Source: Tubiluchus corallicola (Eukaryota > Animalia > Priapulida). From it: DNA of 64,000 bases. This document shows, in pieces, positions 17,601 to 20,600 of this stretch. The notes beneath the pieces were generated by a model. That model did not search any database, had not been told where the DNA came from, and saw only the letters and a program-made list of their open reading frames with translations. Within the stretch, counting starts at the first letter, position 1. Each line of letters opens with the position of its first letter. The position numbers were made by a program, and so were the translations under genes. The stretch is taken from positions 1 through 64,000 of the forward strand of contig JAQGDQ010000480.1 in assembly GCA_030141605.1 (NCBI GenBank). The letters are read 5' to 3'.

Positions 17601-20600
17601 CTGTGAATAACATTGAAATCGAAATATTCTTACTTTGTTTCCCACCATTTTTCATTGTATTCAGAAGGTGAATACTTTCCTTCAAATATGTTCCATCTGT
17701 ATTCGTCCATTAGGTAGCCAAATGGTAGAAAAGTCAACTTGGACAGCGCCACCAACATCAGAAAATTAGTGTCTGCCTCTGAAAGGACACAGAAATGCAG
17801 ATAATGAATTTAATTGGAAAAATATAGAGGGCAGCAGCTATCACTAACAGTTAACACAATTTACAAAATTATTCAATTGCACATAAAGCTGAGTTAAGCA
17901 TATTACAAAGTACTTTACAGATCACATAGTAGTTGGAGCACTTTTTTCTTTACGTATCATTCATTTCTCAGATAGCACGATAGCGTCCATATTTATAGTG
18001 TTTCAACCACTTTGCATTACCTGCTAGAAAAATTAAATAAAGTTAATATCTTTGTTTAAATTTAAAGATTACATACACCGTTTTTTAGAAGTTTGTAATT
18101 GATGTAATTTTAGTTTTAAATTTTCTAAATGTAAAATACTAACCCTAGACGTAAACAAATAAAGCAAACAAACCATATCCAACACCTGTTGGCTAACAAA
18201 AAGCTTTAGCAACATTATTAGCATTGTATGAAAACGCAGTATGAGGCACACAAAACACATAGCACTTGCGACAGGTCTGATCTAACTCAGTGGGTGGCAA
18301 TGGGTCCAATCATCTTTGCAACTTTGTCAGAAGAATCATGAGGGTCTCAACGAGCACAGCAAGTGTTTATTTGACAAAGCTTGATGTTTCTTTCTACTGT
18401 TTTGTTGTGTTGCTTGTGCAGAAGCAAAAAAACTGTGATGAAATAGCAGCAGTTTTGCAATTACAAGTTTGTTCAAGATAAAGCAAATGCAATGACGATC
18501 AATGTTTCTTAGCAGTAGCTGGATAATAGGATTACCGTTAAATATATATGCGAACTACCTCCGTACAATATAGTAATTTTAAGATCAATTTTTGATCCAG
18601 CAGTCTAAATAATTGTTTTTTGCATCACGAATAGATATGATCACAGTTTGGGATCATTCTGTCTCATCCTGTTTGAGAAGCCTCAGGGATATTTTTTTCA
18701 GGAAAAAAGAGAGATTAGTCTTTATTGGGTTTTAAGGATCATAGCTTGTACTTATAAAGGTAACAATTTCGCCGGAAAGAAGGTACACGCCACCACACAC
18801 ATAACATGGTTTACTAAAGCACTGGACACAGCAGGCTAGTGATGCTTCTGTCTGACCAGGAGTATCCTCCAGCTCCAGTAAAAGCCCGATCTGATGCAAA
18901 TGCGTGGGCGTTTCTACGGAGAGAGACATTAAGTCGCCAATGGCCTCATGAAAACCCGGATTAGCTCCACGTCTGAATTTGACAGGTTGATTTTTATACT
19001 GGAGGTAGTACTCGACGTGGCCCATTTCATGATGTGTAGTGGACAGCCACTTCATGGTGATGTCTGTACACTGTTTGATTCTAAACATGCGCAAAAATGG
19101 ATAACTGACCATATAGTTAAACAAAGACACATAAAAAATAAATATTTTATTGATCGTGAACAGGTGTCGGGACTTTTTAAACAATTTCATTCGGTTAAAA
19201 AGGAAAGGTTTTTGAAAGATGTAAGGAGGGTTTTTCATTGTCCTTCTTCAAAAGGTCGATCTTCAGTTTCAATCAATTTGTTCAACCAAATGTAAGAAAT
19301 GTACTTCCGTATGGTCCAACTGATGCACCTAGTATCCTGTATGGATGAATACTAACGAACCTATCCACCATGTATATTGATATTTTGCTAAGAAACTGTG
19401 TAGTAGATCAACAAAATATTCTATGGAGTGAGACAACAAAACAAAGTTTGATCTTAGAATAAATTATTATAGAATCAAACAACGTGCCTAGCCTAAACAT
19501 CAACATGAAGGCAATTTACAATGAAAATAATGTGAATAACATGTAAGACAGGAAGGTTTATTGTTTAGACAACAAATCTGCTAGTGTTTACTATTGACAA
19601 GATTTTTTAATCTGCGGTTTATATACAGCTCAGAAAGATTAATATCGTTACAAATATATCACAGAGGGAAAAAATATGTTTCATAGCCCAAGAATTTATA
19701 TCAGAGCTTTCACTCGGCTGGTTACCACTTGGTATCACTACTACCAACTCTTTAATACTGCAATACTAGATTATACGTGTTCTTAACGCGTATTCTTAAT
19801 ACGTTTCCTGAGCAGGAAACCTCGCACTTTTTCATTCATAGTTAGTTCATTGCTGCCTTCCCAAATAGTAATGTATTAACCATAAAAATTCGTTAAAATC
19901 AGTAACCTGCCAGCCTATTAAAGGCTAACAATAACACAAATTTTACCACAGCGACATGAAGTTCTCACATTCATAGGCGTTCCAATCAGCTGCGACACAA
20001 TGAATTTATATTGCCATATGTAACATTGATAAACAAATTTTCTAGCAGACAAACTCTACTGCCACAAGTGCCACTTGCAATTGCGAAAAATGGCCGAAGT
20101 ATACCCGGACTCTCTTCAAGTTCTAAAAGTAGGCCAATGTCGTGGAGATGAGCAGGTGTTTCAACGGACAGTGACATGAGGTCACCAATGGCTTCGTGGA
20201 AGCCAGGGTTTGCCCCATCTCGGAATCGCACAGGTTGGTTTTTGTATTGCAGAAAGTATTCAACATGTCCCATCTCGTGGTGGGTGGTAGACAACCATTT
20301 CATGTTGATGTCTGTGCACTGTTTGATTCTGAATAACGTAAATAGTTGATAACAACTCTTTTTTATAAAACCGTTAATGCAATGGCCTTCATTATCGTGA
20401 TTATTGTGGCGTTCTTCATTAGTATTGCACTGCACTAGCCTCCTTTTCTCAGTGAGAATATCCCCCTTGCAACACGACAAAATTGCCACAATGTTGTCAC
20501 AATATTTTTTGCAAATATTGGGACAATATTGGCTTGCCACAACATTGTACCAATATTTTTGACAATATTTTTTCCATATTGTGACATTGTTGTGATAATA

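Follow-up and report, generated by a model that had tools for sequence, protein, structure and literature searches.

It has long been asked why angiotensin-converting enzyme (ACE) possesses two active sites whose S2 pockets differ, and the available text of PMC1325048 calls the rationale for tandem ACE domains unknown. A gene that swaps residues 391 and 403 inside an otherwise near-identical domain would be a natural controlled experiment, separating these two residues from the other respects in which the N domain and the C domain differ. Does the present window (the whole 64,000-nucleotide stretch of DNA that was analysed) hold such a gene? A first-pass annotation had claimed that it does, with two alternative exons toggling the S2 residues, and that the animal may have reached an N-like/C-like specificity split convergently. 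We consider it probable (roughly 0.65) that domain 2 is served by two old and intact zinc-site exons of equal length, likely mutually exclusive, which would give the second active site an S2 pocket of the F/D or of the Y/R type.

Gene architecture and exon geometry

Homology and splice signals outline a two-domain ACE gene on the minus strand (44557-11582), with 28 exons per isoform and a product of 1249 aa. Three HEMGH motifs were found on this strand by six-frame search and in the raw sequence (near 33621, 20282 and 19034). The two motifs and four S2 codons that the first-pass annotation had reported are present at the positions below, where X2 denotes one of two runs (X1 and X2) whose contigs were compared with the window.

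11582..44557, minus strand: whole two-domain ACE gene, with a hydrophobic N-terminus and a short hydrophobic C-terminal tail
33543..33667, minus strand: domain-1 zinc-site exon, 5' part, 125 nt, F/D
32263..32361, minus strand: domain-1 zinc-site exon, 3' part, 99 nt
21335..21507, minus strand: shared exon upstream of A and B, 173 nt, joined to exon 22114-22017 in X2 contigs
20105..20328, minus strand: exon A, first copy of the domain-2 zinc-site exon, 224 nt, phase 2 to 1, HEMGH and third zinc ligand, F391/D403 type
20253..20255, minus strand: F codon of exon A (human F391/Y369, S2)
20217..20219, minus strand: D codon of exon A (human E403/R381, S2)
18857..19080, minus strand: exon B, second copy of the domain-2 zinc-site exon, 224 nt, phase 2 to 1, Y391/R403 type, open frame, AG/GT ends
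19005..19007, minus strand: Y codon of exon B (human F391/Y369, S2)
18969..18971, minus strand: R codon of exon B (human E403/R381, S2)
17634..17778, minus strand: shared exon downstream of A and B, 145 nt, with S at human D453/E431, spliced in X2 contigs

A chance match can be excluded for both copies, since each matches the Pfam family PF01401 (Peptidase_M2) at an E-value of ~1e-32 (113 bits for exon A and 114.8 bits for exon B, at a cut-off of 23). The HEXXH motif, the downstream glutamate zinc ligand and the catalytic residues H353, H513 and Y523 are all present in domain 1 and in domain 2 with either exon. In domain 1 an additional intron divides the equivalent of exon A/B into 33667-33543 and 32361-32263, and domain 1 is fixed as F/D, as had been stated before.

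Exons A and B are not only equal in length but also match in phase and in their AG/GT ends. The reading frame forces the use of one or the other, because inclusion of both or neither breaks it: the predicted product is 1249 aa with A only or with B only, ends at a stop after 1046 aa with both, and after 966 aa with neither. The one-or-other geometry proposed in the first-pass annotation is thus borne out. We propose that one copy would be chosen per transcript. Nonsense-mediated decay removes frameshifted products of mutually exclusive exons, and judging from the geometry, transcripts with both copies or neither would meet this fate.

The acceptor and donor of exon B have scores such as other exons of the gene also show; ranked among 28, the A and B donors come 8th and 9th from the bottom, which is middling to weak. 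When the introns were searched for docking-site/selector RNA pairing that could enforce exclusivity, no intron pair scored clearly above shuffles (scores as high as those observed came from 49/200, 159/200 and 13/200 shuffles). A role was also rejected for two inverted repeats capable of looping out exon A (21110-21144/19737-19771 and 21275-21302/19103-19130), as they too do not exceed shuffles at the intron level.

Several further observations concern the surroundings. An AT-rich palindromic MITE-like element (20479-20742; 80-nt arms, 88% complementary) lies 150 nt upstream of exon A. At 21140-21186, ~180 nt into the intron, the 3' end and donor of the upstream exon recur as a short degenerate duplicate, which agrees in 22 of 23 letters about the donor and may be a cryptic 5' splice site. 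Two domain-1 introns (33543-32361 and 37018-36519, minus strand) are missing from domain 2. The last exon (11652-11582, minus strand) contributes a short hydrophobic tail and the stop after it; this tail resembles a GPI-anchor signal and not a transmembrane helix with cytoplasmic tail, from which we infer a putative GPI-anchor-like C-terminus. Repeat copies of 82% identity are found at 25463-25926 and 40943-41394, in a domain-2 and a domain-1 intron respectively.

Beyond the gene, positions 1-8263 (plus strand) form an LTR retrotransposon with 1304-bp terminal repeats that are 99.5% identical; its first ORF has a SCAN domain and a zinc knuckle, and its integrase lies ahead of the reverse transcriptase. 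Head to head with ACE are exons of a rhodopsin-family GPCR (48781-49164 and 54848-55312, plus strand), with a reverse-transcriptase ORF fragment (51119-52366, minus strand) within its intron. This GPCR may resemble neuropeptide receptors.

Age and use of the two copies

The nucleotide identity of A and B is 72%. Where both encode the same residue with a degenerate codon, 45 of the 62 codons differ (38-40 would be expected at saturation), while residue differences number only 8 in 74: positions 391 and 403, together with 374, 400, 425, 429, 438 and 439. When neutral decay of one copy was simulated, none of 2000 runs stayed at or below 8 differences at 0.25, 0.5 or 0.75 substitutions per site, and 34 of 2000 did so at 0.1. 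Given the saturated silent sites, the few residue changes and these simulations, A and B would both have been under translation and selection during the greater part of their history. This pattern strongly suggests that purifying selection acted on both copies, with the deletion contig described below as a caveat.

Five residues are common to A and B and absent from domain 1, from Priapulus domain 1 and from P0153, a similar unsplit exon. They favour A and B as sister copies over a duplication that predates the split of the domains; the silent sites argue against this, as A is nearer to domain 1 (27/58) than to B (45/62; p 0.005). Sites at which A equals domain 1 and B departs are 391 and 403 only, which suggests that B gained Y/R. 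Alternatively A may have gained F/D, a possibility raised by its silent proximity to domain 1 and by the Y/R of P0153.

Evidence on use comes from the two runs. The nature of X2 as RNA is a guess, and it is ~6% diverged from the window in exons; its domain-2 contigs are spliced. One of them joins the downstream exon to an A-like end, agreeing with A in 24 of 30 letters and with B in 18 of 30. This match to A is looser than that of its other exons (6/30 mismatches against 6% elsewhere, p ~0.01), and the X2 contigs of the ACE gene cover the body of neither exon A nor exon B. An X2 contig that lies on the 5' part of B, with 19 differences in 101 letters, was not accepted in support of B: further upstream it reads differently and fails to match the gene's upstream exon at 85%, so that a paralog is its most likely source.

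The X1 run covers introns and may be the source sample. Its contigs show 0 differences over the A-B intron and the B donor region. One DNA-like X1 contig lacks most of exon B:

18586..19023, no strand: 438-bp stretch missing from one X1 contig, made up of 167 nt of exon B including the donor and 271 nt of intron; depth 11.6, the shorter side having 41 letters

The join carries a 4-letter insert, and what is lost comprises the second zinc histidine of B, both S2 residues and the donor. Other X1 contigs have B intact, one of them spanning 18682-18908 with no difference. Read from this single contig, a deletion allele stands beside an intact allele in X1; the deletion contig together with the intact ones thus indicates that some chromosomes can lose B, and no other result weighs as heavily against B being essential.

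It might be argued from this deletion, and from the A-like sequence of the sole spliced join into the downstream exon, that B, for long a real alternative exon, has of late ceased to be needed or fallen silent, leaving an enzyme that today is essentially the A isoform. We regard this as unlikely. In the window, B is free of stops, indels and damaged splice sites and retains all its zinc and catalytic residues, and the deletion is seen in one contig of a run that also contains intact B.

S2 residues, remaining pockets and chloride

Exon A aligns with human ACE without gaps, its residue 1 corresponding to I345 of the N domain and to chain position 331 of the C domain (= tACE 367); the +36 chain offset for C-domain numbering was derived from the published pairing of Y369 with F391 and R381 with E403. 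Exon positions 25 and 37 therefore correspond to Y369/F391 and R381/E403, in agreement with the first-pass annotation. Its further claim, that both residues are S2 determinants with a large effect on N-selective inhibitors, is in line with the available text of two papers. PMC11880972 lists both in S2, and in PMC7148434 the double mutation Y369F+R381E raises the Ki of 33RE from 11.21 to 2794 nM and that of SG6 from 0.093 to 44.05 nM. The accessible part of PMC5366949 ties F391 to RXPA380 selectivity and notes that insects vary at both sites.

The same text of PMC7148434 also sets limits on what the two residues can do: S' residues are required as well for complete loss of selectivity, and with Abz-FRK(Dnp)P as substrate the human S2 double mutant reaches a kcat/Km comparable to that of wild type. 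Outside the swapped exon, domain 2 has its own peculiarities, which are located as follows:

26129..26131, minus strand: domain-2 lysine at human K118, salt-bridge partner of residue 403 (gapless range mapping)
22017..22114, minus strand: domain-2 exon with remodelled S2' residues N277Y, W279N, Q281E and T282L
15934..16032, minus strand: domain-2 exon with K511, H513 and Y520 retained and V518 replaced by Y

Seven changes are common to both isoforms (N277Y, W279N, Q281E, T282L, D453S, V518Y and F527Y), with positions 277 and 279 placed by multiple alignment plus gapless extension. At 260/282, 262/284, 354/376, 357/379, 358/380, 431/453 and 496/518 either isoform reads L, S, K, S, T, S and Y; when this S' set and 496/518 were compared with the human N and C domains, neither was matched. 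Both exon copies retain the N-like S357/T358. The carboxylate pocket Q281/K511/Y520 is complete in domain 1; of its three residues domain 2 retains K511 and Y520, with E in place of Q281. Among 25 aligned domains, Q at 281 is missing only in domain 2 of the window and in domain 1 of Daphnia. We speculate that an acid at this position might favour amidated or basic C-termini, and domain 2, its catalytic residues kept, may not be a typical dipeptidyl carboxypeptidase.

A domain tree built from 31 of 56 domains places domains 1 and 2 of the window in a clade of their own (100/100), apart from vertebrate N and C, and Priapulus falls in with them, so that descent from either vertebrate domain is not supported by this tree. 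Because of this clade, the F/D versus Y/R split is independent of the vertebrate one, and to this extent the earlier idea of a convergent N-like/C-like split stands. The words 'specificity split' are too strong, given the comparable kcat/Km of the S2 double mutant, the need for S' residues, the S357/T358 shared by both copies and the non-human S2' and S1 pockets. With the remaining pockets of domain 2 unlike either human domain (Q281E, V518Y), the isoforms are not mimics of N and C. As the S2' and S1 pockets differ from both human domains, the switch likely tunes the cleavage of the animal's own peptides instead of reproducing human N/C preferences.

Chloride may be part of the same switch. 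According to the available text of PMC3894356, E403 forms a bridge to K118, which lowers chloride affinity, and R381E in the N domain raises the chloride Kd 15- to 29-fold. Domain 2 retains both K118 and R522, and an effect of the A/B choice on chloride is therefore predicted. Isoform A (D403 with K118) would have an acidic S2 pocket and weaker chloride binding; isoform B (Y391, R403) would have a basic polar S2 pocket that favours acidic P2 residues, and bind chloride more tightly.

Recurrence of the residue pair and comparison with known systems

Closely spaced double motifs occur in 6 of 382 proteins (all gene models or ORF calls). Three of these pairs are diverged, namely F/E-Y/R in Timema douglasi CAD7196975.1, F/G-Y/R in the ORF P0274 and T/T-Y/R in the ORF P0265, with Y/R downstream in every case; the other three are identical or nearly so (F/D-F/D, F/A-F/A and Y/T-Y/S). 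A related contrast is found between whole domains. In the 111 vertebrate-type two-domain ACEs among 120 proteins listed, the first domain has Y throughout (111/111) with R in 76/111 and non-R in 35/111, and the second has F throughout (111/111) with D or E in 107/111 and the exact pair F/D in 85/111. Lamellibrachia KAI0233168.1 and Daphnia XP_059351358.1 have an F/D domain followed by a Y/R domain, from separate duplications of their own.

Similar tendencies appear in a representative set of 151 motifs, whose counts are not phylogenetically independent and are query-biased: F goes with an acid in 56 cases and with R/K in 1 of 77. For Y in this set (counts again not independent) the partner is R/K in 18 of 69, an acid in 17 and another residue in 34. 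The searches were seeded with the window exons, which favours F/D and Y/R matches. In nine independent pairs, those of the window and Timema included, F is found with the acid in 5-7 of 9 and the opposite never (median p 0.031).

These data bear on a second alternative, namely that both exons are used, but that F/Y and D/R merely drifted at tolerant positions, the pair being kept for regulation or other surface changes and its likeness to human N/C being coincidental. Positions 391 and 403 are indeed variable across the family (heterozygosity 0.60 and 0.82), there are six further differences between A and B, and the human S2 mutant keeps a comparable kcat/Km on one substrate. We nevertheless find this reading quite improbable: B departs from both A and domain 1 at 391 and 403 only, the chance that 8 variability-weighted differences include both positions is ~0.04, R/K accompanies F in 1/77 and Y in 18/69 motifs (not phylogenetically independent), Y/R recurs in 3/3 other diverged tandem pairs, and the independent-pair test has its median p at 0.031. 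An assembly artefact, with alleles or paralog fragments set in tandem, is largely refuted and hardly credible. Nothing speaks for it directly; the identical tandem copies of gene models P0260 and P0262 indicate that artefacts of this kind, or duplicates of very recent date, do exist. Five residues common to A and B are lacking in domain 1, in Priapulus domain 1 and in P0153, and 72% identity with saturated synonymous sites (against at least 99% identity to the window for 7 of 11 X1 contigs here), together with the 0-difference X1 matches, means that they are not allelic or an assembly duplicate.

The preferred reading, two exons that exchange the S2 pocket of domain 2, may be one case of something wider. 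Tentatively, ACE might possess a recurrent two-state S2 switch (F/D-E against Y/R, coupled to chloride), which vertebrates, tubeworms and water fleas attained by duplicating domains, and this priapulid-like animal, stick insects and further lineages by mutually exclusive splicing of the zinc-site exon, and which in the window is placed on a Q281E domain that perhaps processes amidated neuropeptides. The repeated appearance of F/acid and Y/R suggests selection by natural substrates or by the chloride response, and not only a quirk of synthetic inhibitors. Annotations of invertebrate ACEs may also miss or fuse alternative catalytic exons.

For mutually exclusive homologous exons in general, the available text of PMC7954323 (Lam et al. 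2021) describes that variable residues cluster near functional or specificity sites. Its main text gives 0 matches for angiotensin, and compared with the exons treated there, the swapped exon of the window carries all three zinc ligands. In the accessible part of PMC10484059, on Drosophila ance-3, nothing is said on alternative catalytic exons, and a literature search that covered few subscription journals returned no paper on ACE with duplicated, mutually exclusive or alternative catalytic exons.

The nearest named protein among the best 150 representatives is the ACE-like XP_014676342.1 of Priapulus caudatus (81% to exon A). It is alike in its short inter-domain linker, its F/D in domain 1 and its domain-by-domain grouping, the domain 2s joining at an SH-aLRT of 95, and on this basis the animal is probably a priapulid. 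The Priapulus model is partial and stops short of the catalytic exon of domain 2. When an exon specific to domain 2 served as query, 1 candidate and no match came back, which left no close annotated relative for comparing isoforms.

The closest counterpart of the exon pair itself is Timema douglasi CAD7196975.1 (UniRef A0A7R8VEJ3), in which one ACE gene holds tandem copies of the HEMGH exon, F/E followed by Y/R. It differs in that the duplicated unit appears to end at the GANP motif (a shorter exon), that each copy is nearest to its own partner and not to A or B of the window, and that it is a gene-model prediction rather than a splicing event already described. A single ancient exon pair common with insects was rejected on these grounds (differing exon limits, each copy nearest its own partner), although conversion could mimic such a pattern. 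A domain-1 intron of the window gene lies after the GANP motif, the end point of the duplicated unit in Timema, P0274 and P0265. The Timema protein (P0054) also has a second tandem-duplicated stretch, over the S2'-region exon. P0171 (Y/R) and P0187 (F/N) are near-identical catalytic-exon ORFs, each on a 9442-base contig, and possibly represent another exon or domain pair.

According to the available text of PMC1325048, ACEs with two domains have originated repeatedly. The multi-domain ACEs AnoACE9, Lamellibrachia and Daphnia were duplicated independently, like the window gene, but carry separate domains and not alternative exons; in Lamellibrachia and Daphnia the order of F/D and Y/R is reversed with respect to vertebrates. 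With human somatic ACE (PDB 7q3y, 3nxq and 1o86) the window gene shares two catalytic domains, HEMGH and the third zinc ligand, the contrast of Y369/R381 with F391/E403, and the retained residues K511, H513, Y520, R522 and Y523. Unlike the human enzyme, it ends in a short hydrophobic tail without a cytoplasmic part, its domain duplication is independent, its domain 1 is F/D, and the two states reside on alternative exons within domain 2 and not on duplicated domains.
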